A stretch of DNA of 64,000 nucleotides from an uncultured Fluviicola sp. (GCF_902168135.1 NZ_CABHOL010000043.1:19969-83968); one strand, 5' to 3'. Positions 15,978 to 44,085 are shown, counted from the stretch's first letter. Made by a program: numbers and translations. The notes: generated by a model not told the origin, from the sequence alone.

Positions 15978-16014
15978 TGGGTTTTATTTTCGTTGGATGG
16001 AAAAAATTCCGGGT

Positions 16015-16479
16015 TTATTTTTTCGGGTAAAAAAATTCGAACTGGTTAGCCGGGATATCTTGTGTTTTTGTAATGAGTTCTGTAAGAATTAACTGAAAGT
16101 TAGCATGTAAAGACGGATCTAACAAACTAAAAAAGTATTCATTGGCTTCTTTGATACCTTTTTCAATTTCCAGTATCCACGGTTCTGCTTTAGGTGTAAT
16201 ATGAAGCCTGCGCTCTCTGCGATCTTCCGGGTTTGTTTTCCGTTCGATAAAACCATCTTTTTGTAAGGCATCAATAATGCGAACCATTGAAACTTTGTCC
16301 ATGAGGAGTTGATCTGCCAATTCCTGCTGGTTCATTTGCCCATTGTTTTTCCCGATTAAGTACAGGGGAAAATAATACCTCTCTACAGGCGTATGCTCTA
16401 AAAGAAGAGTTAGTTTCCCAATGTATTGCTTTGTCAGAAAGCTGAAAAATCGGCCTAAAGGCCACTCTTGTGTATTCAT
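16015..16479 (-). CDS. MarR family transcriptional regulator (ATG at 16479 preferred over TTG at 16488)
   Basis: QQELADQL...VSMVRIIDALQKDGFIER...DRRER.L.IT wHTH pattern; first gene of the efflux operon. Confidence 0.92.
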   Translation of the reverse strand: MNTQEWPLGRFFSFLTKQYIGKLTLLLEHTPVERYYFPLYLIGKNNGQMNQQELADQLLMDKVSMVRIIDALQKDGFIERKTNPEDRRERRLHITPKAEPWILEIEKGIKEANEYFFSLLDPSLHANFQLILTELITKTQDIPANQFEFFYPKK

Positions 16480-16490
16480 AATCCTCAAGA

Positions 16491-16509
16491 TAGTTAGTAA
16501 AGCTAACTA
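16491..16509. promoter_or_regulatory. Candidate MarR operator, TAGTTAG-N5-CTAACTA
   Basis: Perfect 7-bp inverted repeat 11 bp upstream of marR. It overlaps a minus-strand -7-like box, TAGCTTTA (16498-16505). Confidence 0.65.
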
Positions 16510-16601
16510 ATAACACGGTAATTAGTTGAGATTTAACGAAAAATTGACGAATTTATTGGGATTCTCTTACATTTGTTCGAATAAATCTATTTACCATCAC
16601 T

Positions 16602-27370: not shown

Positions 27371-29389
27371 TCAATACCTCACCTTCACCGCTTCGTGCTT
27401 TAAACTTCTGAACCCGTCCTGTGACTGATATTGGATCAGGTATTCGTATTCGTTGCTGATCGAAACGGTTTTGTCGGTGTATTTCATGGCTGGAACATCG
27501 GCACTTGAAACAGTTGCAATCAGGTGAAAAGATCCTTCGCTTTTTTTCCGGTAAATAAAGTACTGGAAAACTTCTGTTTGTGGTTTCATCCAGGATAAAT
27601 CGACTGCTTTTGTACTTCTGTTCGGAGATGCTTTTACATTACTAAGTGCGGCTCTGAAACCGGGTTCGATAAAAAGGCTTCTTGATTTGGAACTGGTCTG
27701 ATTATTCGATTGATCGATTGCCAAAATGGAATAACTCACATCTTTCGAGAAGGTGAAAGTCGAATCCCTAAAATGACTGAATTCGTCTCCTTTCCATACC
27801 AATACCGTATCTGTTTTCGAATCGGTTTTCCGCAATAAATACGATTTTTCCACATCTTTCGACGTAGAATTCTGCCATTCCATATCAATTTGAATCCCTA
27901 CTTTTCGAAGTGAGATCAGGAATGGTTCGGAAGGTGGGATAGTGTCCGGTTTAACAACCAGAACAGTGTCTGAATTGGGGCTGTTGTTGTAGTTTTTATC
28001 AACTGCTACGGCAAAATAGTAAATTTCGTTCGTTAAAGTATTCAGGTTTAAAGTGTCGAGAAACAAGGTGTTCAATTGCAGGCTGGTTGTTCTCTCTACA
28101 AACTCCTCTGTTTTTAAATTGGCACGGTAAACACGGTATCCAAGGAGGTCATTGTCTTTTGGTTTGGTCCAGGTTAAAGTGACATGCCCCAGGGAATCAA
28201 TAATTCCCTTGAGATTGGATATTGCCGCCGGTGGTTCCTGGTCAAGCGTAAAATAATAGTAAGGAGTTGAATAGGCCGTATCGTTGTCGGGTGAAAATGC
28301 GAATACCTTGAAGTAATTGCGGTCACCCGAAGGAAGCAAAGAAGTTGTTTTGAATTGAACCTTTGTTTCGTTGGGTTTCAGGAAACGCTCCTCAACCACG
28401 GAATAATTGGTCAATAAACTGTCAGAGCGCATTAGAACAAGCCGGTTGACCAAAAGAGGCAGGGAGTCAACGTCTTTACTGATGCTGACCATGATTTCCC
28501 GGTCGTATCCTTTTGACTGTACAGTATCGATATTCACAATTGCATTGACAAGCTTCGGAAGGTAGATTTTTACTTCATTGCTGTATTGTCCCTTTATTCC
28601 AAAATAGTTGATACCGTAAATTTTATACGTGTAAGTTTTTCCCTGTTGTAATTTCTCGTCTCTGTAGCTGGCCAAACGATCCGTTTTTTCGGTATTGGTC
28701 TTGAAGTTGACAAAGGGAGATACCAGGATCTTTTCGAATTTTCCGTTATCAACCTTACGCTCGATTTGAAAGCCCAGGTATTCTGAAACAACCGAATCGG
28801 CGTTCCATGAAATAGTTGCTGTTTTTTTGCGGTCGACTTTCCCGGTTAATTTTGGAACTTCGGCAAGTTTGGAGGTTTTGTTTTCAATGATTTGGATGAC
28901 AGGATCATATCCTTTGATTTCTACTTTGACTGCAAATGGTTGTCCGCCTTTTGGTCTTGGAATCCCGATCATTAAGTCGGAAAGCAGATTCATTTCAAAG
29001 GAAAGGGAAGATTCCAGGCTGGCAATGGTGAATGCATAATCCTGTGCTTTTTTGTCATGGCTCATTGCCGTTTTAATTCCGAGCTGTATCTCATGGATTC
29101 TATCCAGTTTTTCATTGGATAAATCCCACTTGTCCCATTTTTTGACAACGGGTTCCAAATCTATTTTCTGACCATTTGTAAAATCAGTACGGTCATTTTC
29201 TGCAGAAATAGTCACCCTGACACCATTTTCTAAAATGCTGTTGAACATTTGAATGTCTTTCGGCACCCATTTAATAAAAGCAGAATCTTTGGTAATGTGG
29301 CTGATAACCGGGAACGTGCTGTTGTTTTGAGAAATCGCAAAACCATGTATGCAAATTATGCTTGTAATAAGTGATAGATATCGTAACAT
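27371..29389 (-). CDS. Secreted fibronectin type III repeat protein, 672 aa
   Basis: Signal peptide; several FN3 repeats (ATISW...GFQIER...YRD..LQQGKTYTYKIYG; VTLTW...GYRVYR...YYFAVAVD; DLSW...YFIYR...YTD...YEYLI); no T9SS CTD. Confidence 0.8.
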   Translation of the reverse strand: MLRYLSLITSIICIHGFAISQNNSTFPVISHITKDSAFIKWVPKDIQMFNSILENGVRVTISAENDRTDFTNGQKIDLEPVVKKWDKWDLSNEKLDRIHEIQLGIKTAMSHDKKAQDYAFTIASLESSLSFEMNLLSDLMIGIPRPKGGQPFAVKVEIKGYDPVIQIIENKTSKLAEVPKLTGKVDRKKTATISWNADSVVSEYLGFQIERKVDNGKFEKILVSPFVNFKTNTEKTDRLASYRDEKLQQGKTYTYKIYGINYFGIKGQYSNEVKIYLPKLVNAIVNIDTVQSKGYDREIMVSISKDVDSLPLLVNRLVLMRSDSLLTNYSVVEERFLKPNETKVQFKTTSLLPSGDRNYFKVFAFSPDNDTAYSTPYYYFTLDQEPPAAISNLKGIIDSLGHVTLTWTKPKDNDLLGYRVYRANLKTEEFVERTTSLQLNTLFLDTLNLNTLTNEIYYFAVAVDKNYNNSPNSDTVLVVKPDTIPPSEPFLISLRKVGIQIDMEWQNSTSKDVEKSYLLRKTDSKTDTVLVWKGDEFSHFRDSTFTFSKDVSYSILAIDQSNNQTSSKSRSLFIEPGFRAALSNVKASPNRSTKAVDLSWMKPQTEVFQYFIYRKKSEGSFHLIATVSSADVPAMKYTDKTVSISNEYEYLIQYQSQDGFRSLKHEAVKVRY

Positions 29390-29393
29390 TCTT

Positions 29394-32279
29394 TTAATTG
29401 ATAATTTGACAGTCGTTTCCTATTTCTATATCTGCCTGGAAATCCAGATTAATGATTCCGAGTAGTTTGACTGAAAATCCGACAGCTCCGTAGACAAATG
29501 TAGGTTTTGGCAATCGACCCTGAAGCAGGGCGGCGGCGTCAATTGAAGCGACCGAATATTCTTTTTTGAGTGTACCGTCATCTTTGTAGCGACGGACACC
29601 CATACCGCCACTCAGCCAGGCATAAACCTGTCCCATGAGATACCAATTGTTGAATCCGACTTTGCTTGTGGAACCCGAGCAATGTGCTGTTGGACTCAGT
29701 TTGAACATGGTAATATCAAAACCTGCACCAACGCTGGCATAAGCATATCCTCTCCAATTCGTTTCTTTCGGGAATTCCCCTCCGAAATTTGCGGCAATCA
29801 TCATTCCGGTAGCAAACCCGTTTCCGGTGCTCACGGCACTCATATCTGTACTGATAATAGGGCTTGAACTAACAAGGTTTGTTACGTAGGACGGCGGCGG
29901 CGGCATCGGGTCGATCTGCGTTCCGATCATGAAATAGGTATTCGCCGTAAACAGGTTTAATACTTCAATGGTTGCCCTGTTCGACGGACGGTTCAACCAA
30001 AAATACCAATCATGTTTGTCAATGTGGATTTTTAAATTACAATTTCCCTGGAGAATTCCCGGAACAATGGCAAGTGCGTCTACTTGTGCATCAAACACTT
30101 TTTCAACGTTGTCGTAGTTCACAGAAATAGCACCTTCTACTTTTGTGCAATTAGCACCTCGCTCTGAACGTTTTACGAGCATAGTCGCCCGCCCGAAGAA
30201 ATTGATATTGGCCAAACCTCCGTTGGCATTGAATTGGATGGAGAAAATAGCTTCGCCGTTCAGGACCGACTCTCCCGGAATGGCCACCAATGCAACACCT
30301 GCACTGAATCCGAGTCCCAGGCTGGGATCAGGTATGAAAGGTATGGCGGAAGAAGTAGGGGCGCCCTGATTTGGATTCATAGCTCCGTTAAATGCCCGGT
30401 CTAGTTTTTGGGCCGGAGTAAGCGTGCTTTTTACTCCGTATTGAACACCTCCGAAAAGATTGGTGATTAAAGCAAACTGACCGATCGGTATAGTTAGTGG
30501 TACGGAAGCATCCACGTACCAGTATCGCTTCGAATTGAGTTTTCCAAATCCAACAGATACTCCGGCAAAATCATTCATGATCGCATTGAGCTTGAATGAA
30601 ATTGCTCCAAAGAACATGTCCCCGTAAACCGGGTCGTCATCACGAAGAGAAAGGATTCCGTTCAATGCAAACGGACTGGTATTAATAGACAGAGCGATAT
30701 CGTATACCTTGAATTTGTCGAATTGCAGTCTTTGTCTTCCGTCTGATCCGGTAACTCTTTTTGTAATGACACCTACAAAAGTAGATGCCCCAAAAGAATT
30801 GGAATTTTCTTCGCCTCCAAGTTTTAAGCTGAGGTCGACTTTTAAGATAACATTGGATTGCGTCAGGCCAAGTTCCAGGTAATTCAGAGAGATTGGAAGC
30901 CTTGCGACTTTGTTGGGTTCTCCGTCTTCGCCAATTTCGTCGCTTGTCAGTGCAAATGTACCGCCGTAAATATAAGGTGCCTGCGTCCCGATGTTTAAGG
31001 ATTGGAAGAGCAATTTGTTCAGTCTTGCTTTAGCTCCGTTATACGTCAGGTTTCCGTTAAGTGTAATGTCAGGAATGAACTTCCCTGAAACAACCTGCAC
31101 ATGGACCATACAGTTAGGTGCCAGCTTCAGGGTGGAGCTGAACATTGGAAGTTGATAGGTATAACTGTTTACTGTTTTTGCAGTGAAATCATAAATAAGC
31201 GCTGAATTATCGTTGGGTTTATAGACTCCTGCACGGTATGCAAATTCAGCATTATTTAAAGGTTCTACGCGGAGTTTTCCGGCCAGTCGACCATCTACCA
31301 GGTGGTTATATTCGATACCCAATACCAGGGAATCAATTGAGAATCCCCAGCTGTCCATATCGCCCTCTCCGACACTGAAAATACCGGTTGCAAAGAAATC
31401 TCCGGAAACACCGTTGTCATCAATCAGAAGATCTGTTACACCAATGGTCGTTTCGCCACTGCTCCTGCTTAGTTTAGGTGGAAGTTTTACGGAGAGGTTA
31501 TGCGCATAAAACCCGGTCCAGTTACCGATTTCAGGATAGAGGTTTTGGGTGGCGGCAGGTAAGATAATTCCGGTAGGATTGATAGAATCGTTGCGGTCAA
31601 CGATCAATTGGTTTACACGGAATTCAAAATCATCCAATCCTTTCACCACAAAAGGATCCATACTGGTCTGGAACATGATTTTGGAAATATCGTCTATATT
31701 GACCTGTATGTTCGCTTTTACCTGTCCTCCGCCTGGTTTATGGATTAATTCCTGGCTAAAAAGGATATCGGCGTTAATGTTAGCCCGCTCGTAACCATTG
31801 CAGCCCCATTGGATGTAATTTGTTCCGTCGCCTTTGAAAACAATGCTGTTCTTTGGTCCCAATTTGATGCGTTGGTCCCCCAAAAGCTTTAAAGTAATTG
31901 GGTTTCCATTACCACCGGGCATAACTCCTTTCGGGTTAAATGAAACACCTTTTGCTGCGAAAGCCAGCTTCCCGTAAGCACCCGGCCAGTCCATGGCCAT
32001 ATAAACATCAAAGGTTGCTCCCTGCGGAGTAAAACGCGCCGAATCAATGCAGATCACGTAAATAATATCACCGATTTTCTTGCAAATTCCGATAGGAAGT
32101 GATGCATGATCAGTAGGCGAAAAGTTCGTAGTCTGCTTGTCAGGATTGACCCGGATAATAGAATCCAGGGTAAGAGCCCTTATTCTGGATTGAGCCAAAC
32201 TAGCAGAGTCAGACTGCGCGTTCCCCTTGAAATTTAGGAAGATGGCGAAAAGAATAAAAAGTAGGTGTCGGGTTTGCAT
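29394..32279 (-). CDS. Large secreted beta-strand-rich hypothetical protein (about 961 aa; start refined to ATG at 32279)
   Basis: Signal peptide MQTRHLLFILFAIFLNFKGNAQ; Gly/aromatic-rich predicted beta strands throughout; no T9SS CTD. Confidence 0.8.
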   Translation of the reverse strand: MQTRHLLFILFAIFLNFKGNAQSDSASLAQSRIRALTLDSIIRVNPDKQTTNFSPTDHASLPIGICKKIGDIIYVICIDSARFTPQGATFDVYMAMDWPGAYGKLAFAAKGVSFNPKGVMPGGNGNPITLKLLGDQRIKLGPKNSIVFKGDGTNYIQWGCNGYERANINADILFSQELIHKPGGGQVKANIQVNIDDISKIMFQTSMDPFVVKGLDDFEFRVNQLIVDRNDSINPTGIILPAATQNLYPEIGNWTGFYAHNLSVKLPPKLSRSSGETTIGVTDLLIDDNGVSGDFFATGIFSVGEGDMDSWGFSIDSLVLGIEYNHLVDGRLAGKLRVEPLNNAEFAYRAGVYKPNDNSALIYDFTAKTVNSYTYQLPMFSSTLKLAPNCMVHVQVVSGKFIPDITLNGNLTYNGAKARLNKLLFQSLNIGTQAPYIYGGTFALTSDEIGEDGEPNKVARLPISLNYLELGLTQSNVILKVDLSLKLGGEENSNSFGASTFVGVITKRVTGSDGRQRLQFDKFKVYDIALSINTSPFALNGILSLRDDDPVYGDMFFGAISFKLNAIMNDFAGVSVGFGKLNSKRYWYVDASVPLTIPIGQFALITNLFGGVQYGVKSTLTPAQKLDRAFNGAMNPNQGAPTSSAIPFIPDPSLGLGFSAGVALVAIPGESVLNGEAIFSIQFNANGGLANINFFGRATMLVKRSERGANCTKVEGAISVNYDNVEKVFDAQVDALAIVPGILQGNCNLKIHIDKHDWYFWLNRPSNRATIEVLNLFTANTYFMIGTQIDPMPPPPSYVTNLVSSSPIISTDMSAVSTGNGFATGMMIAANFGGEFPKETNWRGYAYASVGAGFDITMFKLSPTAHCSGSTSKVGFNNWYLMGQVYAWLSGGMGVRRYKDDGTLKKEYSVASIDAAALLQGRLPKPTFVYGAVGFSVKLLGIINLDFQADIEIGNDCQIIN

Positions 32280-32295
32280 AGTACGAAAGTAATAT

Positions 32296-32303
32296 TTAGA
32301 TTT
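32296..32303 (+). promoter_or_regulatory. -7 element TAGATTTG upstream of the 32346-43712 operon
   Basis: TAnnTTTG match in the 66-bp divergent intergenic region. Confidence 0.45.
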
Positions 32304-32345
32304 GAAATCGCAAACCACTTTGCATAACAGAAACTTAAACGCTAC

Positions 32346-35300
32346 ATGAAATCTAAATCATTCCTGTTCCTGGTCCTCTTATTTCATTGCTTTTCTCACG
32401 CACAAACATTGAAAAATGTAGTTGTGAATTTGGATGCAAGCGGACAAGTCTTTGATATCAAGTATATCACCAGCATGCAGAAATACATCGTTGTGGGGAA
32501 GTTTTCCAGTATTCAGGGACATGCCGTAAATAATATGGCCTTACTTGATCTGAATTTCAATTATGTAAATGCAACTTTTCCAACTGTAAATGATGAAATC
32601 CGCTGTGTGGAGGTTTTTAATGCCAATATATACATCGGAGGCTTATTTACAGTAGTAAATGGTACCAGCCAGGAATGCCTTGCCCGAATGACGATTACCG
32701 CACCTGCAGTTGCAACCGACCCTTATGTGGTTGCCCATCTACCTGCGTTTCAACTTCTGAATAATTTCGCGTCGGCTTATTATGTAGCTGATATGGATCT
32801 AAATGGAAATGAGATTGTAGCGGTAGGTGGTTTTTATGATTCTTCCAGAAATTGTATCGTTGCTTTTAGTGCAAGCTCGGGAGCCCTGGTTTCTACCAAA
32901 TTTACAGGTGGATCCGGAATAGATGAATATTATGACCAATATACCAACTATCCGATTTTCACAGTCGATAAGTTGAATAACAACTATGTGGTTGCTGGTC
33001 CGGCAATGAGAAATTATACCTATGATAATATTACCTATCCGGACGGAACGGAAATGATGCTCTTTAATAACTCGGGGACACAGCTGACGGGGAATACACT
33101 TCCTTCATACCATACCGTGAGTTACCCGAGTTCGACCTATCCTACACACCAGGCAAATGAAATCTCTGTTTTGAATGACAGTATTGTTCTGACTAATTTG
33201 CGTCATGGAAGTGGAGCAATATTGCTTGGAGCCTTGAATATTGTTAATCCTGATTCCTATGAGGTATTGCATCCGGTTGCGTTGACTGGGTATGCGTTGG
33301 GTAATGCAGGAATTGTATCTTATAACAATAATTTCTATTACATCCGCAATAATACCATTGAACGTGGTTCGGTTACCGGGACAATAGGCTCCGGATCGAG
33401 TTTGGCCCTTTCATTTTTGCCTTCGAACAACATTAGTTTGGGAGGTAGTTCGGCATCCCCTTCTTTGTTGGGGAAAATGCTTCAATTGACGAACAACTTC
33501 CTGATCGTTTCCAGTGATAATTTGTCAACCATTGCAGGTCAGTCACGCACAGGTTTGGCCATTATGTGCCTGGAACCGGAAGATGCGAAGAAGATGAATA
33601 ACCTGTATAATATGGCTTCGCTTCCGCCCAATCCACCACCTTTTGAACTGGATACGGTTGTCTGTGCCGGAAATATTAAAGCTTATACGGTTCCGCCCGC
33701 TAAATATGCAAATGGGTACCGATGGACTTACAACGGGCCCGGAGTCAAATATTGCCTGGCTAATACCCTGAGCGAAGTTCCAACAACAGCGAGCAGCTGG
33801 ACAAGCCTCAACGGATCTGTAATAGTCCCTATGTCTGTTACAGCCCATAAAATGTGGTTGATGTTTGATGAATCATTTACCGGTGGAGAGTTGAAAGTAG
33901 AACCTTATTCAACCTGTAATACGACAACGGATTATTTATTCTCAAAAGCGGCTACAACAACACTTGTTTTAGCACCTTTACCGGATTTGACCGTAGCAGA
34001 TTCATTGATGCTGACTTGCTTGAATGATACTGTGAACTTGGTAGCTTCGTCAATTACTCCGGGAGTTAGTTTTTCCTGGTTAAATGAAAATGGAACAACC
34101 ATTAATAACAGTTCCATTCAATTGACGTTGAGTGGTGTGCAATCGGTTTCGTTCCCGCGTTATTTTACTGCTACCGTAAGCCAAACTTCTGGTAATATGT
34201 GTAAAGTAAGAGATAGTGTCTTTGTAGATCGAAGTGTGATCAAACCCGAAATGATTCTGAACGGCTCCCTGCCGATTTGGAATTGTTATTCTGACTCACT
34301 GCAAATAGAAGTGATCGATACCAATTCGCTGGCTCCCGAACTTCCGGTTGTGATTTCATGGAATGAATCTTCTAATGACTTTTCGAATGCCAATCCTTTG
34401 ACCATTTACAGTGATACGGCTTCCATTATTTTTATTGCGACCTATCCTTCTAACGGTTGTGTGGATACGACGCAATTAACCTTAAGTACTGATTTAACTC
34501 CGCCAATTCAACAGATCAATGGGTTTTCTTCCGGTTTTCAGCAAGTTGGCACTATCACCTGTACCAATGATTCGCTGTTGGTAATTTTAAGTGATTATAA
34601 CTCCATTAATACGGATAATTACTGGATCTACCAGGGCGATACTTTGCCCGATTCTGTCTGGGTAACAGCTTCTGATCTGAGTTATCAGGAAGCTGATACG
34701 CTTGGAGCAAACCTGGTTACTGTGACCATTGATGAGTACCGGATTAACCCGCTCAACGGTTGTTCAACTTACGGGCCTTTGGCAGCGGTCGTATTTGATA
34801 TTCGGCAACCTGCAGTTATTGCTTATAGCGGACCTACGAGTTTAACCTGTTCGGCTGATGAGCTGATCCTGGAACATTTTCCGACTTTCGGAATTTCCAA
34901 TCAGGGATGGCTTCTTGCGAACGGAACTTCTAACGGTGCAGATACGCTGGTGGTAAACGGGTCCGGAGAATTCTATTACCAAGTGGAAGGAACAAACGGC
35001 TGTTTAGTTACAGATACGATACAGATTCAGCAAACGAACGAATTACTCTTTGCTTCCGCGATGGATACACTGGTATGTCCCGGAACTCCATTTACGGTAA
35101 GTGCTGTTGCAATAGGTCCGGGAACCATGACTTATTCCTGGTCTGATGGAACCCAGGCAATCACTCCGAATGGTATCGGTGGGGAAGATTCTGTTTTCAT
35201 TGTCCAGGCAGAGAACGGACAAGGCTGTGTTGGAGTTGATACCCTGATGGCTCACATTACCTCTCCGATCAGCGCAACCTTTGAAGCCTTTTCTTCCTGT

Positions 35301-36083
35301 GGAAGCGGTGGTTTTATTCAGGTCGATTCGATCTACGGTGGAGCAGCCGCAGATCTTTCGGATTATTTGTTTGCCTTTAACGGAGGTGCTTACTCCACGA
35401 ATTACAATTTCCCGGTGAACCAGATTGCCACCTATCCGCTTTTGATTAAGGATACACTGGGTTGTGAATATGCATTTACGACAGAAATTACAGGAGTCAT
35501 CCAGAATCCTGGGGTGGACTTCCTGGTGTCAACTTACAACCAGGTAGGAGATACGATTGTTCTGGTCAATATCTCCGGTTTCTCCGATTTCGACGGTGTG
35601 TTCTGGACCTTGCCTTCCGGTGTGGAAATGATTAGTTCCTACGATTCCATTGCAATTTTTACAGCTGCGGATAGTGGTTGGTACCAAATCCAGTTTACGG
35701 GCTTCCTGATCGATACAGCTGCAAACCCGGCTGACACTTGCTTTTATTCTTTCGATAAGTATGTTTACTTCGGTAATTTCGCTATGAATTTCGGAGATTC
35801 GGCAGTTGATAACAGTATCAGCAATGTACAGCTTTATCCGAACCCGATTTCGGCAAACCAAAGTCAAGGTGTTACACTGAGCTTTAATATCGCAGGTCTG
35901 CAGCACTATGAAGTGATTTTTACCAGCAGTTTGGGAGAAGTTCTGAATTCCATTTCGGATGAAGGGACCGCGGAAGGCGATATTGTAAAAACATATAATC
36001 TGCCTCCATTAGCTTCTGGAACTTACCTGATTCATATTTTGGCCGAGTACGGTGCTGCACAAATTAAACTGATTGTGCAATGA
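32346..36083 (+). CDS. T9SS type A sorting domain protein: N-terminal beta-propeller-like repeats plus Cys-containing Ig-like repeats
   Basis: Signal peptide; repeats IVVGKF/IYIGGLFTVVNG/IVAVGGF; Ig-like repeats (LTC..DTVNL, NGC...DT); CTD LYPNP...SSLGEVL...LASGTYLIHI...IKLIVQ. Confidence 0.85.
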   Translation: MKSKSFLFLVLLFHCFSHAQTLKNVVVNLDASGQVFDIKYITSMQKYIVVGKFSSIQGHAVNNMALLDLNFNYVNATFPTVNDEIRCVEVFNANIYIGGLFTVVNGTSQECLARMTITAPAVATDPYVVAHLPAFQLLNNFASAYYVADMDLNGNEIVAVGGFYDSSRNCIVAFSASSGALVSTKFTGGSGIDEYYDQYTNYPIFTVDKLNNNYVVAGPAMRNYTYDNITYPDGTEMMLFNNSGTQLTGNTLPSYHTVSYPSSTYPTHQANEISVLNDSIVLTNLRHGSGAILLGALNIVNPDSYEVLHPVALTGYALGNAGIVSYNNNFYYIRNNTIERGSVTGTIGSGSSLALSFLPSNNISLGGSSASPSLLGKMLQLTNNFLIVSSDNLSTIAGQSRTGLAIMCLEPEDAKKMNNLYNMASLPPNPPPFELDTVVCAGNIKAYTVPPAKYANGYRWTYNGPGVKYCLANTLSEVPTTASSWTSLNGSVIVPMSVTAHKMWLMFDESFTGGELKVEPYSTCNTTTDYLFSKAATTTLVLAPLPDLTVADSLMLTCLNDTVNLVASSITPGVSFSWLNENGTTINNSSIQLTLSGVQSVSFPRYFTATVSQTSGNMCKVRDSVFVDRSVIKPEMILNGSLPIWNCYSDSLQIEVIDTNSLAPELPVVISWNESSNDFSNANPLTIYSDTASIIFIATYPSNGCVDTTQLTLSTDLTPPIQQINGFSSGFQQVGTITCTNDSLLVILSDYNSINTDNYWIYQGDTLPDSVWVTASDLSYQEADTLGANLVTVTIDEYRINPLNGCSTYGPLAAVVFDIRQPAVIAYSGPTSLTCSADELILEHFPTFGISNQGWLLANGTSNGADTLVVNGSGEFYYQVEGTNGCLVTDTIQIQQTNELLFASAMDTLVCPGTPFTVSAVAIGPGTMTYSWSDGTQAITPNGIGGEDSVFIVQAENGQGCVGVDTLMAHITSPISATFEAFSSCGSGGFIQVDSIYGGAAADLSDYLFAFNGGAYSTNYNFPVNQIATYPLLIKDTLGCEYAFTTEITGVIQNPGVDFLVSTYNQVGDTIVLVNISGFSDFDGVFWTLPSGVEMISSYDSIAIFTAADSGWYQIQFTGFLIDTAANPADTCFYSFDKYVYFGNFAMNFGDSAVDNSISNVQLYPNPISANQSQGVTLSFNIAGLQHYEVIFTSSLGEVLNSISDEGTAEGDIVKTYNLPPLASGTYLIHILAEYGAAQIKLIVQ

Positions 36084-37813
36084 TGAAAGTGGTTTTTTGT
36101 TTTTGCTTCCTGCTGCCTATCCTTGCGTTTTCCCAAAACCTGGATAAGATCGGTAAAAAAGGAATGATGAAAGTTTCCGGTGGATTGAACTTTTCTTCGA
36201 ATTTGAATCAGGCCTACGGAAAGACTCTGGCCAGAGATCCGTTCTCCTGGGTGGTTGGTGGAAATGTAACTTTTTCGGTGCTTGATTTTTCCATGCCTTT
36301 TACATTTTCGTACACCAACCAGGGCGGAAATTTTACGCAGCCCTTCAATATAACGGCACTGCATCCGACTTACAAGAAGATCAAAGGACATGTGGGAGTC
36401 ATTTCCATGTCGTTTTCACCTTACACGCTTGCCGGATTGAACTTTGCAGGTGCAGGACTGGAATACACACCGGGTAAATGGAAGATCCAGGGTTTTGGAG
36501 GAAGACTGAAAAAGCAGGTAGCCTTTATCCCGGAGATCAACAACATTGAAACGATGGCCTACAGAAGATGGGGCGGTGGAATTTCTGTCGGATATGAAGA
36601 CAAAGGTTATGGAGCTACTTTTATTTTGTTGAAAGCCTCTGATCAGCGTACTTCATTGGCAGTCGTTCCAAACAGCGCAACCATTACTCCGATGGACAAT
36701 ATCGTGGCGTCTCTGGCTTTGAAAGGAAAAATCGGGAAATCGATCCTGATGACTGCGGAATATGCATCCAGTATTCTTACACGAAATACTGAGCTTACGG
36801 AAAAGATTGAACGCAAGACGTATGCAAAAACCATGTCGCCGCTTGTAAACGGAAACCAGTCTACGATTGCTTTCGGGGCTTTCAACGGGTCGATCAATTA
36901 TCAGTACAAGGTGTTCTCCATCGGGGCGAAATACGAACGGATTGATCCGGGATACACCACACTTGGCGGTATGTACTTCAACAACGATTTGGAGAATATT
37001 ACGCTTACACCGGCAATTGCACTTTTCAGGGGGAAACTGAACATCAATATCAATACCGGAGTTCAACGCAACAACCTGAATAACCTGAGTGCTAATGAAA
37101 TGAAACGCTGGGTAGGAACAATTGCCCTTTCAAGTATGCCTTTCAAAAACTTTACGGTTTCCGGAAATTACTCGAATTTCTCTTCTTTCTCGAAACGGAA
37201 TCCGGCTTCAGATCCTTTCTACAACCCGGTCGGAGACACCCTGAATTTCTACCAGATTTCTACGAATGCGAGCGCAAGCATGTCTTACAATTTTGGGAAG
37301 AAGCGTAAAAGCACTTTGATGTTGAACGGGAATTATTCCGTAAGCGAAAACATTACCGGACGCCTGGAAGATGCTGCCGCTTTCGGCTTCAATGTTTCGG
37401 GAACGAACCAAACCGGTCCTGTAACGGTATTAACCGGGATGTTCGGTCACACACTTTCTTTTGAGAAATCGAAATCTTCATTGGGCTGGACAATCAACGG
37501 AAGCCAGTCGAGGGCCATGAGCAATGAAAACCTGTATTTCGGTCCGGGAGTGAATTACTCGAAACCAATTTTGAAGTGGATCAACCTCACCACAGGACTT
37601 ACCTACAATCAGAATTACACGAATTCAAAGCTTGCCAACCACGTCATGAATACGCGGGTCGGACTTTCGTTTAAGCCTACCTGGTGGGACAAAAAATTCG
37701 GTTCGTTGAACTTTTCACTGAACGGAAGTTTGGTGAACCGGTTTGCAGTTGCCAAAACCTCCAAAAACCAGGGAGATATTGCCCTTATTTTCAATCTTAA
37801 CTACGGATTCTAA
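36080..37813 (+). CDS. Outer-membrane beta-barrel protein, 577 aa
   Basis: Signal peptide; alternating amphipathic strands; C-terminal beta-signal FNLNYGF; ATGA overlap with the upstream gene. Confidence 0.8.
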   Translation: MMKVVFCFCFLLPILAFSQNLDKIGKKGMMKVSGGLNFSSNLNQAYGKTLARDPFSWVVGGNVTFSVLDFSMPFTFSYTNQGGNFTQPFNITALHPTYKKIKGHVGVISMSFSPYTLAGLNFAGAGLEYTPGKWKIQGFGGRLKKQVAFIPEINNIETMAYRRWGGGISVGYEDKGYGATFILLKASDQRTSLAVVPNSATITPMDNIVASLALKGKIGKSILMTAEYASSILTRNTELTEKIERKTYAKTMSPLVNGNQSTIAFGAFNGSINYQYKVFSIGAKYERIDPGYTTLGGMYFNNDLENITLTPAIALFRGKLNININTGVQRNNLNNLSANEMKRWVGTIALSSMPFKNFTVSGNYSNFSSFSKRNPASDPFYNPVGDTLNFYQISTNASASMSYNFGKKRKSTLMLNGNYSVSENITGRLEDAAAFGFNVSGTNQTGPVTVLTGMFGHTLSFEKSKSSLGWTINGSQSRAMSNENLYFGPGVNYSKPILKWINLTTGLTYNQNYTNSKLANHVMNTRVGLSFKPTWWDKKFGSLNFSLNGSLVNRFAVAKTSKNQGDIALIFNLNYGF

Positions 37814-40800
37814 TGCGTAATTACTTTTTCCGAATAAAATTTCGTTTACTCTTTTTGCTCCTGCTTTTTGCCGGATCAGGAATCCATGCACAGGTTTATC
37901 CGGTTCAGGTAACCGTTGTACCGACACCGCCTCACCGCAACTATTTGAATTCATTTTCGGAGCAGGGGGCATTGAATGTGTTCCTGACACTGACTGATTT
38001 CAATTCGGGACCCATTTCTGTGAAACTGAAAATGGAACTGAATGGTCCGGGATACCAATTCCGCTCCCTTCCGAATAACCTGATTTATGTCCTGAATCCG
38101 GGACAACCGGTGCAGGTTCCCATGGAAGACCTGGCGGTGTTCTTCAGTTCTACCGGGCAGACCCTGAATTTCAATCCGGGGAAACTACCGGAAGGAAATA
38201 CCTCTATCTGCATTGATGTGATTAAAAACCAAAGCGGTGAAGTGCTTTCCCAAAATGGCTGCGGTTACTTTTACATGGGATACGGTCAGCCGGCATCTTT
38301 GCTGCAGCCGGCTTGTAATGCTACTGTTCAGATCCCTGCGGGATACCCGGCTTCCACCGATCTACGGACCCTTCCTTTGCAGTTCAATTTTATTCCGGCA
38401 CTTGCACCGATCGGTTTGCAGCAGGAAGTAGAAAACACCTTGTATATCTACAATTGGCTGGGCACAGTGAATACCAATCCTCCTCTTACACCGAATGGCC
38501 TGGCTTTGGCTATGGATCCGGTGGAATTGGGTCCAATTACGGCTCACACGCTTTTACCGATCAATAATCAGCTCATTGTGGGGCAGGAATATGTTTGGTA
38601 TGTGAAGACCAGCCTGAACGGTTCCACGAATCAGTTCCAGAATGGCGGCTGGTCAGCTCCGTGCAAATTTAAGTATGGTGCAGCGCAGTCTATTGAGGAA
38701 GCCCTGGCTAACGGACTTTCCGTGGAGTGGGTAGACCTGGTTTCCAATTCCGAATCCAAAGGAACGGGAACCTGGAAAGTGGTGAAGGAAGATCCGAACT
38801 CATCGGCTACGTTCAACCAGTTTATTCTAAAATACCGCAGAAAAGTTCCTGCCGGTCAGCAGCCCTTCGAATGGTTCTCCGATACGGTCAACGATTTGAG
38901 TAAGGCCATTTACCAGCTGGAGCCTGCAACGACTTACGAAGCGAGCGTGGCAGGACGTTTGGGGAGTTTTGTTTCCGAGCCAACCGAAATACGCACTTTC
39001 ACTACAGCTCCGCCAAGAACTTATAGTTGTGGAGTAGCCAATTTCCCGGGAAGAGCAACCGCATTCCAGCCTTTGGAATACGCAGATCCTGGAATGAAAG
39101 TCAAGATCGGGATGTTCCAGCTGGAGTTTGTTTCCGTTCAGAATACCGGTCAGCCCGGGCATTTCAGTGGTACGGGACTCATCCCGGTAGATTTCCTCTT
39201 CGGAGCGGAAGCACGGGTGAAGTTTGACAACCTGAAGATCGACAAGGAATACGATGTATGGGAAGGAACGGCGCATGTGATCACAGATGGACTGGATGCC
39301 TGGCTGGAAGATCAGTACCAGCAGTTCCAGGACCCGATCTTTGTGAACGGAACGGTTGATTCGGCTTATGTGTCCGATTCTATTGCACATGTGGTAATTG
39401 ATGGAATAGATACCACATTTACTTTCCCTTGTGCCACTTGTCCGGTTATCATTAATGACGTAGCAGGAAACCAGGTTACGATCTATCCGAACGGAACGGT
39501 GATCTGGAGCAGTTACCTCGATGTGTCGGATGAACAGCTGGATGTTCCGGATACGGAGATTGGTGTGTTTGAGCAGCATGCACAGGAAACCGGTGGATTT
39601 GATCCTTTCGAGCACATCGAATGGAACGCGAATTACGAGATTATCCGGACCTCGAATGCTGTCAATTATTTTGTGGCCAATAAATCGTTGATAAAAGGAC
39701 AACCCGACAAAGTTTCCCTGAGTGTTCCGGAAAACAAGTACACGGCTACCAATGTGCAGCTTTCCTGGGCCGGACTTGCAACACCTTTGGCGCCGGCTTC
39801 AAGCACAGTTTCAAGCGGCAAAAGAGTATTCGTATTCGATTTACCGGCATTCAATGATGATGACGAATTTGCCATTTACGCGATCTCCGATAATCTGAAG
39901 ATCGGTAAGTTGAATGTGGTGGTTTATGAATTAATTCAAAAAAATATAGTTGTTATTCCTATTGGTGGAACTATTGATGGTAGTCAATTAAGAACCTATT
40001 TGAATACTACTCTGGGAGAGTCTGGTATTGATTTCACTATAACTATTAGTGATACTACAGGGGTTGGTAAATATTCATCACTCAGTAGTCTGAATATTCC
40101 AGATGCAACTTTAATGAGTAAGTATTCTGGTAAGATGCGCCAGATCAGGAACAGCTATTTTGATACACATGAAGAAGAAGATAATTCTTTCTATTTTTTC
40201 ATAGTTTCTTCTTTGATGGATACGGTTCATAATCTTCCCGTAGATGGTTATATGGTTCGAGGTAAAAATATCGGATTCATCCAGTCAGGAAGCACCTTCC
40301 GAACATATGCCCATGAGTTGGGACATGGGGCAGGTTTTTTGGAACATAGCTGGAAAAATAATGGGCCTGAAAGAGGTAGTTCTAATAATTTAATGGATTA
40401 TGTCAGTGATGATAATTTATTATTCAGCCAATGGGAGGAGTTAAGAAATCCAAACGGCACTGGTTTATGGGATGAAGAGGAAGATAATGAATCTGACGTA
40501 AGCGGCAATTATCTCAAGCGACTTTTGCCTTTGAAGAATGCTAATAATACGTTTACATTTTTTGATCCCTCTGGTGGAATTATATCAATCCCTGTGGATG
40601 GATTAACTAATATTTGTATTTCAGATAATAACTCTTATAAAAGTTTTTCCGAAAACACCAGATTAAATGTTCCTGCTGGGACTTTAGTTGAGTTTAGCTA
40701 TAATGGTAAGCGATATTTTAGTTTTGGTACTGAAACTGATTTTGCCGGATATGCATACAAAGAGGGGGATACCAGGGTTTACTATGAAGACCCCTATTCT

Positions 40801-43263
40801 AAGGAAATTCCCGAAAGTGATCGACAGGTAATACTAGGTTTTCCATATTATCCTGATGCTCAGGAAATTGTAAATCGAATTCCTGAAGTTAATGGAGTTG
40901 TAACCTATTCCTTAGATAACATTCAGTTTTCGGATCTTCCAACCTATGCTTTCCGATTGGTTAAGCCAACAAGTTCTTTTTCATGGCCCTCCGAAACAAT
41001 AACTTATCTTAATAAACCCTCAAAGAACTTTGATAAGTTCGCGAGTTTCATGGAGAAATTCGACTATTATGATGGTCCATTGGTTGATATTAAGAATTTT
41101 AATATCAGTTGGAATGATTATGCAAAAGGTTTTTTGGTATTAAATAGTACGGAATTTTTTGGGTATAACTACAATCAAGCTATTCAATGTGCGAATTATA
41201 TTAATTCTAATCCTGGAGTATATATTAGTATTCAGGCTTGTAATTCAGTGGATTTTCCTATAAGAAATCATAAACAATTAAATACTTACCTGTATGAAGA
41301 TGAATTATCACCTATTCCAACGGATGGTAATTTTTCCTACTGGAGGCCAATTAATCAGTATTCGGAAGCACAAAAAGAACATTATATAGATCAGTTTAAG
41401 GGGACTTTAAGGGCTAGGACTGATAATGCAACATCGTTTAATAGCGAGATTGAAAATTGGCCTATCAATAATCCGGATGGATTAAATACAAAATTGGCCG
41501 GTCTATGTGAAGGTCATTATTCTGAATTGTCAGTTAAAGCACGAAAGCAAATTATAAAAACCCTTGCACAATCAAATGATATTGATGAGTGTGATATGGG
41601 AATCTTTAGTTCTTCAACTACCTGTTCTGAAGGACAAATTTTGGCCGTTTTAAGAAATGCGCCTGCCACACAGTATAAAGAAATAGTAACTTTTTTAAAG
41701 GAAAACGATAATTTATATTTCAGGAGACTCTACAAGGGGATTGATAATCATACATGGGGTGCTTATAATTTTGAGGAGTTCACAAAACTGCTTACCGCTA
41801 TTGTTACTAATGCCTTTGACGATTACGAAGGTCTGTTGGATAATAATGCTGTGATCTATTATGAGAGCATTGCAATGGATAATTACATTTCAATGTATGA
41901 GCAAAAGCAAAGATATTTGGGTAGTTCGTTAGTTGAGTCTGATCCGGCAGGTAAGGTTTGGATTAACATGCATTTTCAATATGGCAATGGTTATATTCCT
42001 CCAAGTGAGCTTAAACACCAATACAATCCTTTGGATGTTATATTGATATATGGTGCCAGTGAGTATAATTATTCTTCCCAATATTTCAAATTAGCCGCTG
42101 GAGAAATGAAATTAGTACCAGCCTTTTATTTGGCGGCAGTGAATAAATCCGGGCAAGATAGAAAATTTGAATACGAATTAAATGTAGTAACAACTGTTGC
42201 TGGTGGAATAATTATGCTGCCTTTAGCTGAGGCTCAGGTTGCTGCGGGTGGTATTGCAGAATTGTGTGCTGTAACTGAGGTTATTGCATATTCTGTTCAG
42301 GCACCAATTATTGTAACGGATGTTTTAAATACATTGGATCCAAATTCGGAATCCTATTATATCATTTCGAAATTGAATGATTTTTGCACGGCTGCCATGC
42401 TATTTTCTGGCGGTGCAATGATGATCTCAAATCTTGATAATGCCGCAAACTTTGTCAAAAATATAGATCTTGACAAATTGAAAAATATCCCTAGCCAGGT
42501 TTCAATTCAGTTTCAGGACAAGATCAGGAAATTGCGTGATTTTGCATTAGCTCTTTTAAAGAAGTTTCAGAGAACGGAAACATTATTAGAAATGCTTAAT
42601 GGACCATCGCTTAAATCTTTGAAGAATAATGTGAACGGCCTTAGCGAAGCTCTTTATACTCAATTTTTGGATGATTTTTCAAAAAGTCACTTAGAGGATT
42701 TGAAAAAACTTCAGAATGAAGGTTTATTTGAAATTTGGAAAACCGGTGTTCGAAGTAGTAATATAGAGGAGTTAAGAGAAGTAGCAAAAATACCAAATCT
42801 GAGATCAGAATATGCCCAAAAAGTAAAAGCATTGGCTCAGAAGAAAATCGAATTAGAAAGTCAGGGTAAGACCCCACTTGAAATTGCACAGACACTTTTT
42901 GGAAATAGAAGAGACTTAACCATACATTACAAAAAGATAACTCCGGATGATTTAATGGAATGGATCTATAAGCGGAATCATTTTGAGTATGTTGTAAAAG
43001 GAACCGGTGACAAATGGGGACTTACCTGGCAAGGCGCATTAAAAAAATATTCTAAAGATATTGTGGAAGATCTTTCTCAAGCGACTCCTAGCCAAATGAA
43101 TGAAATTTATAGTAAAATTGCAGGAAGCGCATCGGAAATATTTGAAGGAGCGGAAGACAAAATAGCTCTGGGGCAAAGATTTTTGACTTATTTTGATGGA
43201 AAGGTTACTCCAACAGAATTTTTATCTTTAGAGCGAGTATTATTGAAATATAGAATGATGTGA
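37813..43263 (+). CDS. 1816-aa TANFOR/FN3-type secreted protein with internal HExxH metallopeptidase and C-terminal polymorphic-toxin-like domain
   Basis: Signal peptide; QVYPVQV TANFOR-like N-terminus; FN3 (YQLEPATTYEASV); AHELGH...NLMDY; hydrophobic hairpin; RRDL..YK..TP..L...IY.RN..Y...GD..G tip; GC drop at about 39.9 kb; TAATG overlap with the barrel gene. Confidence 0.8.
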   Translation: MRNYFFRIKFRLLFLLLLFAGSGIHAQVYPVQVTVVPTPPHRNYLNSFSEQGALNVFLTLTDFNSGPISVKLKMELNGPGYQFRSLPNNLIYVLNPGQPVQVPMEDLAVFFSSTGQTLNFNPGKLPEGNTSICIDVIKNQSGEVLSQNGCGYFYMGYGQPASLLQPACNATVQIPAGYPASTDLRTLPLQFNFIPALAPIGLQQEVENTLYIYNWLGTVNTNPPLTPNGLALAMDPVELGPITAHTLLPINNQLIVGQEYVWYVKTSLNGSTNQFQNGGWSAPCKFKYGAAQSIEEALANGLSVEWVDLVSNSESKGTGTWKVVKEDPNSSATFNQFILKYRRKVPAGQQPFEWFSDTVNDLSKAIYQLEPATTYEASVAGRLGSFVSEPTEIRTFTTAPPRTYSCGVANFPGRATAFQPLEYADPGMKVKIGMFQLEFVSVQNTGQPGHFSGTGLIPVDFLFGAEARVKFDNLKIDKEYDVWEGTAHVITDGLDAWLEDQYQQFQDPIFVNGTVDSAYVSDSIAHVVIDGIDTTFTFPCATCPVIINDVAGNQVTIYPNGTVIWSSYLDVSDEQLDVPDTEIGVFEQHAQETGGFDPFEHIEWNANYEIIRTSNAVNYFVANKSLIKGQPDKVSLSVPENKYTATNVQLSWAGLATPLAPASSTVSSGKRVFVFDLPAFNDDDEFAIYAISDNLKIGKLNVVVYELIQKNIVVIPIGGTIDGSQLRTYLNTTLGESGIDFTITISDTTGVGKYSSLSSLNIPDATLMSKYSGKMRQIRNSYFDTHEEEDNSFYFFIVSSLMDTVHNLPVDGYMVRGKNIGFIQSGSTFRTYAHELGHGAGFLEHSWKNNGPERGSSNNLMDYVSDDNLLFSQWEELRNPNGTGLWDEEEDNESDVSGNYLKRLLPLKNANNTFTFFDPSGGIISIPVDGLTNICISDNNSYKSFSENTRLNVPAGTLVEFSYNGKRYFSFGTETDFAGYAYKEGDTRVYYEDPYSKEIPESDRQVILGFPYYPDAQEIVNRIPEVNGVVTYSLDNIQFSDLPTYAFRLVKPTSSFSWPSETITYLNKPSKNFDKFASFMEKFDYYDGPLVDIKNFNISWNDYAKGFLVLNSTEFFGYNYNQAIQCANYINSNPGVYISIQACNSVDFPIRNHKQLNTYLYEDELSPIPTDGNFSYWRPINQYSEAQKEHYIDQFKGTLRARTDNATSFNSEIENWPINNPDGLNTKLAGLCEGHYSELSVKARKQIIKTLAQSNDIDECDMGIFSSSTTCSEGQILAVLRNAPATQYKEIVTFLKENDNLYFRRLYKGIDNHTWGAYNFEEFTKLLTAIVTNAFDDYEGLLDNNAVIYYESIAMDNYISMYEQKQRYLGSSLVESDPAGKVWINMHFQYGNGYIPPSELKHQYNPLDVILIYGASEYNYSSQYFKLAAGEMKLVPAFYLAAVNKSGQDRKFEYELNVVTTVAGGIIMLPLAEAQVAAGGIAELCAVTEVIAYSVQAPIIVTDVLNTLDPNSESYYIISKLNDFCTAAMLFSGGAMMISNLDNAANFVKNIDLDKLKNIPSQVSIQFQDKIRKLRDFALALLKKFQRTETLLEMLNGPSLKSLKNNVNGLSEALYTQFLDDFSKSHLEDLKKLQNEGLFEIWKTGVRSSNIEELREVAKIPNLRSEYAQKVKALAQKKIELESQGKTPLEIAQTLFGNRRDLTIHYKKITPDDLMEWIYKRNHFEYVVKGTGDKWGLTWQGALKKYSKDIVEDLSQATPSQMNEIYSKIAGSASEIFEGAEDKIALGQRFLTYFDGKVTPTEFLSLERVLLKYRMM

Positions 43264-43712
43264 TTTTATTGAACTTTGGAAATTATAAAATAGCAAGAAA
43301 AATTCTGATTGAAAATGAGATAATTCAGTTTTTTGAGGAAGAACCATATTCAGCTTCAGCTACTGAGAAAGATGGTCTTTATGAGGTGCTTAATAAGCAG
43401 TTGATAGCAATCTTTTCGGATAAGAAGAAAAATTACTTGTATTTGAATGGTCAGTTATTTCTATTAACTCCGGAAATATCAATTGAATATTTTATTGCTC
43501 AGGATATGCATACCAGGAGCTGGTTTAAATTATTTAAGTCGGAGGATTTAATTTTCAATATAAATTATTTAAATCCACATAAGCCTTTTGTTTTGTCCGA
43601 TCCTTTTTTTTCGGATGAAGATTATGAGACAACTAACTTTGCTTCTCATCTTGCCCAGTGGATATCGAAAATAAAAAAAGAGAATAATGTTGTCTTGTTT
43701 CACAAGCCATAA
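43260..43712 (+). CDS. Putative cognate immunity protein, 150 aa
   Basis: GTG start overlaps the toxin stop (GTGA); small, low GC, aromatic/acidic, no signal peptide. Confidence 0.6.
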   Translation: MILLNFGNYKIARKILIENEIIQFFEEEPYSASATEKDGLYEVLNKQLIAIFSDKKKNYLYLNGQLFLLTPEISIEYFIAQDMHTRSWFKLFKSEDLIFNINYLNPHKPFVLSDPFFSDEDYETTNFASHLAQWISKIKKENNVVLFHKP

Positions 43713-43861: not shown

Positions 43862-44035
43862 ATTACAGGTAATGCATCGGTTGAAGTATACGATTTGAAC
43901 GAGAAATTGCTCTTGACTGAGAAAAATATCAGCCCGGAAGGCCCGCTTTCACTAGAGGCACTTAGCGGAAAAGTTTTCCTGATCAAAATCCTTGAGAACG
44001 GAAGAAGCATGTAGCAAAGAGTGGTGAAGCTTTAA
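43862..44035 (+). pseudogene. Remnant T9SS type A CTD of a destroyed cargo gene
   Basis: Reads ITGNASVEVYDLNEKLLLTEKNISPEGPLSLEALSGKVFLIKILENGRSM*QRVVKL*. No start codon; premature TAG at 44012; aligns with the CTD of 44193-47042 (ATVQVFDLNGKIL...LSGLDGNMFVVRII...QKRVVKY). Confidence 0.75.
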
Positions 44036-44052
44036 AAGTTATGGAACTTACG

Positions 44053-44085
44053 GTGCTGTTCCATTTCCCGGAACAGCACTTTTTG
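44053..44085 (+). terminator. Rho-independent terminator
   Basis: Perfect 10-bp stem GTGCTGTTCC / GGAACAGCAC followed by TTTTT. Confidence 0.8.

Follow-up and report, generated by a model that had tools for sequence, protein, structure and literature searches.

Polymorphic toxins are reportedly defined, after Zhang et al. 2012, by a constant N-terminus with unrelated C-termini, by tips that occur on other carriers and by an immunity gene that co-varies with the toxin. Among the Bacteroidetes, a class of polymorphic toxins headed by the TANFOR domain was published by Jana, Salomon & Bosis in 2020 (PMC7073777). About 87% of these toxins carry Sec signals, and SprB-repeat, Por_Secre_tail, Fn3 and PKD domains are enriched near their genes; export by type IX secretion (T9SS) was hypothesised, with the export question left open and without an experimental model (PMC7073777). 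Later papers containing the whole word TANFOR add no mechanism. A second point of comparison comes from the T9SS itself, where SprB with SprF and PG1035 with PorP represent cargo proteins with a dedicated barrel partner that holds the cargo at the surface (PMC9143113). In a further source, cargo with a type-B C-terminal sorting domain (CTD) is reported to pair with PorP-like shuttles, and type-A cargo to use the general shuttle PorV (PMC12618676). Here, we describe a locus of six genes at positions 27371-43712 of a 64,000-nucleotide stretch of DNA from an uncultured Fluviicola sp. (GCF_902168135.1 NZ_CABHOL010000043.1:19969-83968; the whole stretch is called the window below). Judged from sequence comparisons, two of these genes, g1816 and g150, very probably encode a polymorphic toxin and its immunity protein; the other four belong to a module that recurs in several orders of Bacteroidota.

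The minus strand carries g672 ("F", 27371-29389), encoding a Sec-signal protein of 672 amino acids (aa) with an FN3 array, and g974 ("B", 29394-32318), encoding a family-less all-beta protein with a Sec signal (961 aa if translation begins at the ATG at 32279, as is probable, and 974 aa if it begins at GTG). The plus strand carries g1245 ("C", 32346-36083), for a T9SS type-A cargo protein; g577 ("O", 36080-37813), for a predicted outer-membrane beta-barrel of an unannotated family; g1816 (37813-43263), for a giant polymorphic toxin of 1816 aa; and g150 (43260-43712), for a candidate cognate immunity protein in the cytoplasm. Stop and start codons overlap throughout the plus-strand genes: g1245 and g577 share 4 bp (ATGA at 36080), the stop of g577 and the start of g1816 share 1 bp (TAATG at 37811), and the stop of g1816 and g150 share 4 bp (GTGA at 43260). 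By inspection and a hydropathy scan, each of the five large proteins has at its N-terminus a basic n-region and a hydrophobic core ahead of an A/S-Q-type cleavage site; no Sec signal was seen in g150. The GC content is 0.48 over aa 1-715 of g1816, 0.35-0.37 over aa 716-1816 and 0.30 in g150 (window, 0.416). Scans with Pfam and NCBIfam found no PAAR, VgrG, Hcp, two-partner secretion (TPS) or RHS domains in the six genes, and even at E 10 no family matched g577, g974, g150 or aa 894-1816 of g1816. The six genes, the overlapping stop and start codons on the plus strand, the five Sec signals with a cytoplasmic sixth product, the low-GC tail of the giant and the lack of hallmarks of other toxin systems had all been proposed in an earlier note made from the sequence alone, and each of these points was confirmed.

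The N-terminal 715 residues of g1816 (37813-39957) consist of a Sec signal (MRNYFFRIKFRLLFLLLLFAGSGIHAQ; Kyte-Doolittle (KD) hydropathy 1.62, by inspection), a divergent TANFOR-like head (aa ~28-300) and an FN3-like, conserved middle (aa 301-715), and make up the conserved trafficking part of the protein. Neither a T9SS CTD nor a Pfam fn3 domain was detected in g1816. Eleven database relatives are 54-98% identical to these 715 residues and cease to align at aa 891-1055, beyond which no similarity is left; P0271-P0278 are 79-98% identical over aa 1-715. Same-genus giants in 60 related genomes likewise match g1816 over no more than its first 900-1020 residues (86, 75, 55 and 36% identity), in frames of 1363-2026 aa. 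The closest of these, at locus L022, is ~97% identical to aa ~715, 42-50% identical over aa 716-893 and without similarity from there on. Over their final 400 aa, 31 other giants or split partners share only 9-18% identity with g1816, and between them these C-termini carry ART, ADPrib_exo_Tox, TNT, EndoU, Toxin-deaminase, AHH, Peptidase_M15_4 and PT-TG domains. Close relatives thus combine a constant N-terminus with unrelated C-termini, as the earlier note had supposed.

A metzincin-like peptidase occupies aa 716-893 of g1816 (39958-40491, plus strand), with HELGH at 40312-40326 and NLMDY at 40387-40401. Reprolysin_4 reaches 21.1 bits here (cut-off 22). The third histidine in HELGHGAGFLEH sits one residue past the canonical HExxHxxGxxH spacing, and NLMDY is a possible Met-turn; sister giants match Reprolysin_3/5 and the DUF4953 Met-zincin. 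About 30 giants keep the pattern HExxHxxGxxEH...NLMDY...[FWL][WFL]DxxED, and because their similarity stops right after the acidic motif, the metzincin-like domain directly precedes the first junction. In g1816 the acidic motif reads WDEEED (aa 886-891, 40468-40485, plus strand) and ends the peptidase domain. The GC break coincides with this block (aa 716 on). Releasing peptidases occupy the position just before the junction in other polymorphic toxins. Stand-alone proteins of ~870-900 aa from many genomes of the genus (e.g., G013:C22, G029:C10 and G033:C1:1149077) are 26-32% identical to aa ~580-893 of g1816 and, by this similarity, seem to represent the metzincin-like region in free-living form.

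The variable middle module that follows (aa 894-1584, 40492-42564, plus strand) ends in RKLRDFALALL (aa 1572-1582, 42526-42558), which marks a second junction at aa ~1583. Pfam and PDB searches of the module returned no match, and among 5.8 billion proteins it has a single relative, P0289. Its identity to g1816 is 27-45% in the N-terminal part, rises to 55-69% over the middle module and drops to 0% for the tip, the similarity stopping just past RKLRDFALALL. From this mosaic we conclude that head, middle module and tip have separate histories; three C-terminal blocks would have been exchanged by recombination at the WDEEED and RKLRDFALALL junctions. The middle module also contains two hydrophobic helices (aa ~1458-1502, 42184-42318; KD 1.57), and 11 of 23 complete giants have a comparable pair at a distance of 250-350 aa from their C-terminus. 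Our guess is that these helices serve membrane entry.

The toxin tip itself (aa 1585-1816, 42565-43263, plus strand; core aa ~1660-1790) is an unnamed helical domain. A HMMER search with aa 1560-1816 yielded 193 matches at E<1e-3 among 1.84 billion cluster representatives; in the 150 matches listed of these 193, 143 of 155 matching stretches end within 30 residues of the protein C-terminus. The carriers include RHS-repeat, PAAR-like/DUF4280, TPS+DUF637 (CdiA-type), SpvB+FG-GAP+RHS and DUF6861 proteins, i.e., the tip recurs C-terminally on carriers of other secretion classes. Invariant or nearly so are R1664, Y1667, R1699, R1700, K1707, T1710, P1711, N1722, Y1726, D1733 and G1736. A profile of 21 tip sequences found nothing in the PDB except designed helical repeats, Pfam returned only noise on the same 21 sequences, and a PDB sequence search with aa 897-1816 matched no solved structure. 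By its family context, the tip is a putative genuine toxin module. In a related genome, G002, one short contig (C118, L028, 2982 bp) consists almost wholly of pairs of a tip and a small open reading frame (ORF): a 192-aa tip of another family with a 119-aa ORF is followed by two truncated tips of the window's family (84 and 114 aa; 42-46% identical to the g1816 tip), each before a 106-108-aa ORF. Its sequence looks like an orphan cassette array.

A homologue of g150 was found at one site among all collected loci. At L061 (Crocinitomix sp., 15652-17021), a 302-aa tip protein carries its own signal peptide and a tip 44-46% identical to that of g1816; its stop overlaps an ORF of 154 aa with 35% identity to g150 (E 3e-22). 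As g150 follows a homologous tip in another genus, it is likely the immunity gene, and on these sequence grounds we regard its product as the candidate cognate immunity protein of a toxin with which it co-varies. The small ORFs downstream of other giants are unrelated to g150 and to one another, in keeping with the expectation of unrelated small genes in this position, and the AHH-tipped giant of L117 precedes an Imm11 protein. At L061 the tip/g150-type pair lies ~4 kb from a giant-less module of cargo, barrel, g974-like and FN3 genes. Elsewhere (L042, L071, L074 and L089), giants are followed by runs of 3-4 small same-strand ORFs of 110-200 aa, which may be immunity or orphan arrays.

The relation of g1816 to the published class runs through its relatives. 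Seven of ten distant members of its family match TIGR02542, the TANFOR model, six of them nearly full length (E 1e-9 to 4e-3); the sub-threshold matches mostly cover model positions 2-141 of 145. A family of 1726-aa paralogs in the genus is ~30% identical to aa 8-300 of g1816 and matches the model at ~1e-7. The head of g1816 is therefore a divergent TANFOR domain, by a homology that is transitive only: the protein stays outside the class as delimited by the curated cut-off. It shares the features of the class, namely a Sec signal, no CTD on the toxin, and T9SS-substrate and Fn3 neighbours. The label "TANFOR/FN3 giant" in the earlier note is thus right for the head, by way of the relatives, and does not extend to a TIGR02542 or Pfam fn3 match in g1816 itself. 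Since TIGR02542 does not detect g1816, the 2020 survey would have missed it. The 1726-aa family is present in at least eight genomes of the genus and absent from the window's genome; one of its genes (L015, G012:C1) directly follows a gene whose PKD-repeat product bears a type-B sorting domain of the T9SS, and no barrel gene separates the two.

Like the TANFOR toxins of that survey (PMC7073777), g1816 has a Sec signal, a constant head and a downstream immunity gene, its sisters end in the same kinds of toxin domain (AHH, EndoU, TNT, deaminase and ADP-ribosyltransferase), and the locus includes a T9SS-substrate gene a short way upstream and, close by, a gene for an Fn3 protein. Unlike the toxins as described there, g1816 has a metzincin-like domain, a WDEEED junction, an exchangeable middle and an unnamed tip. 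The barrel, the g974 family and the peptidase are not mentioned in that paper (PMC7073777). The toxin class as such is known, and on sequence g1816 is best called a divergent variant of it. What appears new, relative to the literature searched, is most of all the unannotated barrel-centred module, but also the unnamed tip, the divergent head and the architecture of the junctions. The overall reading in the earlier note of a polymorphic toxin with a swappable C-terminus and co-occurring accessory genes can be kept, whereas its description of the system as undescribed has to be dropped in view of the 2020 publication (PMC7073777).

The cargo protein g1245 comprises a signal peptide, a propeller-like N-terminal region, Cys-rich Ig-like repeats and a CTD (aa 1163-1245, 35832-36080, plus strand; TIGR04183), with weak hints of DUF5122 and Ig_7. 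TIGR04183 scores 26.5 bits on the 120-aa tail alone (cut-off 23) and 19.8 bits on the whole protein. The T9SS cargo label given to it from the sequence alone therefore holds for the tail, which in combination with the signal peptide qualifies g1245 as type-A cargo, and fails when the whole protein is scored. Among the genes directly upstream of barrel homologues, 39 of 44 encode a type-A CTD.

For the barrel protein g577, the AlphaFold2 (AF2) model (pLDDT 76.9) is one continuous barrel of ~26 strands, with strands over aa 30-576 and without a plug or POTRA domain; the protein ends in ...NLNYGF. Foldseek returned generic large barrels only (MtrB with a TMq of 0.47, FimD with 0.44, TonB-dependent transporters, LptD and SprA). 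Over 1158 proteins make up the family, every one of them called "hypothetical" and none with a Pfam domain; a PDB sequence search gave no match, and in Pfam PorP_SprF did not match at E values up to 10. The protein is thus predicted to be a wide barrel in the outer membrane, and its family is new. It is about twice the size of PorP/SprF proteins.

Its two minus-strand partners are less easily placed. The AF2 model of g974 (pLDDT 78.8) shows long beta-hairpins throughout, with Foldseek TM-scores of only 0.11-0.16 to LptD, ApoB and ushers, and Foldseek of the model neither confirmed nor excluded a TamB/AsmA-like identity. Alignments with hhalign showed g974 to be unrelated to the toxin head and to the barrel, and the cargo to be unrelated to the head; an assignment of g974 as a TANFOR giant was rejected on this basis. 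In g672, Pfam fn3 matches three stretches (E 1.2e-8).

To follow these genes across the Bacteroidota, we relied on a one-genome-per-species scan, in which 125 barrel relatives were confirmed in contigs and 80 loci were kept and annotated with iterated hidden Markov models built from the window's proteins. The 80 barrel loci span Flavobacteriales (Crocinitomicaceae, Fluviicola), Chitinophagales, Cytophagales and Bacteroidales; co-occurrence of the five large genes beyond this genome, which the earlier note had named as support for its reading, is thereby borne out. In the 37 loci with at least 9 kb upstream and at least 6 kb downstream of the barrel ("fully covered"), a same-strand gene of at least 1000 aa directly precedes the barrel in 33 cases. 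A g974 homologue is present at 25 of these loci, a TANFOR-like giant at 23, a g672 homologue, adjoining that of g974, at 19, and all four partners at 11. Spacing is tight: the median gap from cargo to barrel is -1 bp (at most 20 bp in 53 of 60 cases), that from barrel to giant 2 bp (at most 20 bp in 29 of 38) and that between g672-like and g974-like genes -4 bp. Identity levels of barrel, cargo, g974 and head correlate across loci (Spearman 0.63-0.92); these correlations are not counted as evidence because a shared species phylogeny gives an equal pattern.

Gene order varies by clade and the genes stay together, with divergent pairs in Crocinitomicaceae and all genes co-directional in Chitinophaga and Niastella. 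Fulvivirga has the giant ahead of the barrel, several genes away, and in other lineages the giant is split in two. At L070, L072, L073, L101 and L110, TANFOR head and middle stand on a protein of their own (731-765 aa), whose gene is followed, with an overlap, by a separate ORF of 842-1088 aa; the g974-like and FN3 genes come further downstream in the same direction. When the toxin served as anchor in place of the barrel, the barrel was found in three of five loci: at L117 and L119 between an SprB/Por_Secre_tail gene and the giant, and at L123 between a 1214-aa gene without a recorded Pfam domain and the giant. The cultured Fluviicola taffensis (DSM 16823) has the same five genes, with an ORF of 171 aa downstream of them (L021). 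Taken by their sequences and neighbourhoods, the four genes upstream of the toxin constitute a tightly linked, phylum-wide envelope module with the type-A cargo gene and the barrel gene as its invariant core.

Beyond the TANFOR class, three known systems invite comparison. In the SprB-SprF and PG1035-PorP pairs, as in g1245-g577, a cargo gene is followed by a barrel gene and the pairing is kept across species; unlike there, g1245 has a type-A CTD, g577 does not match PorP_SprF, and a toxin without a CTD has joined the operon. Contact-dependent growth inhibition (CDI; CdiB/CdiA/CdiI) resembles the locus in the barrel gene beside that of a giant Sec-dependent toxin with a variable C-terminus and an immunity gene, in the orphan tip/immunity cassettes of a relative and in the same tip family on TPS/DUF637 proteins. 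However, g1816 has neither a TPS domain nor haemagglutinin repeats, the ~26-strand barrel lacks a POTRA/Omp85 signature, and the main partner of g577 is a T9SS cargo. Searches gave no match to TPS, Bac_surface_Ag or POTRA, and g577 is modelled as a single ~26-strand barrel, which sets the locus apart from two-partner secretion with its Omp85-type barrel of 16 strands and its POTRA domains. Effectors of type VI secretion (T6SS) linked to Rhs and PAAR share the family of the C-terminal toxin domain with g1816, in contrast to which the six genes here encode no RHS/YD repeats, PAAR, VgrG or Hcp.

The borders of the locus carry traces of its history. Housekeeping genes lie on both flanks, with one extra T9SS cargo gene downstream (44193-47042; Por_Secre_tail, 33 bits). 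Between g150 and this gene, a fossil T9SS type-A sorting domain with an in-frame TAG and without a start codon forms, together with a terminator, the right border (43862 to 44080 or 44085, plus strand). Its translation, ITGNASVEVYDLNEKLLL...ENGRSM(stop)QRVVKL(stop), parallels the CTD of the next gene (...VQVFDLNGKIL...SQKRVVKY(stop)), and a strong terminator (44052-44080; an 11-pair stem and a T-run) follows the fossil CTD. The fossil sequence suggests an older cargo gene, most of which gave way to the toxin cassette. Within the high-GC part of g1816, an antisense ORF of 291 aa (38827-39702, minus strand) is unsupported as a gene and probably a by-product of composition.

How could these parts work together? 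The explanation that we favour, by a slight lean only, joins the toxin-immunity pair and its modular exchange to a cargo-barrel platform that recruits the giant. The T9SS would export the cargo, and the barrel would hold it at the surface. This platform would recruit the CTD-less toxin via the TANFOR head, and the toxin might leave either by passage through the wide barrel or in company with the cargo. Release of the variable part at WDEEED by the metzincin-like peptidase would come next, the hydrophobic module could help the tip to enter a neighbouring cell, and g150 would neutralise the tip in the cytoplasm of the producer. The architecture of toxin and immunity gene, the modular exchange and the conserved linkage of the genes are shown by the sequences, whereas we infer each step of export, anchoring, cleavage and entry. 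That the accessory module is the export or display platform of the toxin is, in our estimate, an evenly balanced question. The stronger version, in which barrel, type-A cargo, g974 and FN3 proteins make up an unrecognised outer-membrane export or display apparatus with the TANFOR head as the docking signal for giants without a CTD, polymorphic toxins among them, is a tentative proposal that we rate as somewhat doubtful. By analogy, the cargo-barrel pair resembles type-B cargo with PorP/SprF-like barrels (PMC9143113, PMC12618676).

Several observations weigh against this explanation. No giant is present at 14 of the 37 fully covered loci; the cargo is therefore the barrel's primary partner, and the module must have a function that does not need this toxin. 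Of the toxin-anchored loci, L120 has a TANFOR-like giant with no barrel within 10 kb upstream, and L122 has no barrel in its limited sequence. TIGR02542 misses g1816 at E 10 and finds nothing in its whole genome, and relatives of g1816 reach only 17-38 bits on this model (cut-off 67). The folds of g577 and g974 resemble nothing specific, and the ORFs that follow the orphan tips of G002 bear no relation to g150. A dedicated barrel for a type-A cargo would also be unprecedented because such cargo is reported to use PorV (PMC12618676).

The giant-less loci fit a different account, in which the accessory genes are an adhesin or gliding-type surface module and a mere bystander, and the toxin leaves by piggy-back on another cargo, in vesicles or through lysis. 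Toxin genes would then gather by T9SS-cargo operons through shared regulation or at a recombination-prone site. The giant without a barrel at L120 and the 1726-aa TANFOR-like paralog directly after a type-B CTD protein are likewise expected here, and the fossil CTD and the extra T9SS cargo gene that flank the cassette suggest a rearrangement-prone neighbourhood. What makes us consider this account rather unlikely is that the linkage outlasts changes in gene order across orders, with overlapping stop and start codons, and that searches starting from the toxin recover the barrel in three of five loci; moreover, the 715-aa conserved head would be left without an obvious role besides trafficking or docking.

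The close coupling of barrel and toxin could instead mean that g577 is a dedicated, two-partner-like translocator through which the giant crosses the outer membrane independently of the T9SS, the cargo being merely a co-expressed adhesin that draws cells together. The 1-bp overlap of the two genes in the window and the median gap of 2 bp between them in 38 loci agree with such a role, as do the ~26 strands without a plug, which put the barrel in the size class of FimD, LptD and MtrB (barrels that let protein or lipopolysaccharide through or enclose it), and a toxin that has a Sec signal but no CTD. Yet the barrel is tied to the cargo in 33 of 37 loci vs the giant in 23, the barrel has no POTRA/Omp85 signature and the giant no TPS domain, and in Fulvivirga-type loci the giant lies several genes from the barrel. 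The persistence of the barrel in the 14 of 37 loci that lack a giant makes a pure two-partner model less likely than the platform model, and we regard it as unlikely. Finally, g1816 could be a large protease or adhesin of the cell surface, its C-terminus varying for reasons of antigenicity or substrate, and g150 an unrelated small gene. This would account for the conserved metzincin-like motif and for a tip without Pfam or PDB match, but is highly improbable given that the tip is common to Rhs, CdiA and PAAR carriers, that the ends of sister giants are TNT, EndoU, deaminase, AHH and ART domains, and that g150 accompanies the tip in another genus and orphan cassettes exist.

Returning to the platform explanation, the barrel gene that overlaps both the cargo and the toxin gene, along with its two partners, provides concrete candidates for the export route of TANFOR toxins. 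The toxin class is extended to heads that the curated model misses, two recombination junctions are defined (WDEEED after the metzincin-like domain and RKLRDFALALL before the tip), and a widespread tip common to Rhs, CdiA and PAAR effectors is flagged. The presence of the same five genes in the cultured type species Fluviicola taffensis opens the question to gene deletion. If the stronger version of this explanation is true, the apparatus would be the missing secretion route of TANFOR toxins and would constitute a contact-dependent killing device for the T9SS world.

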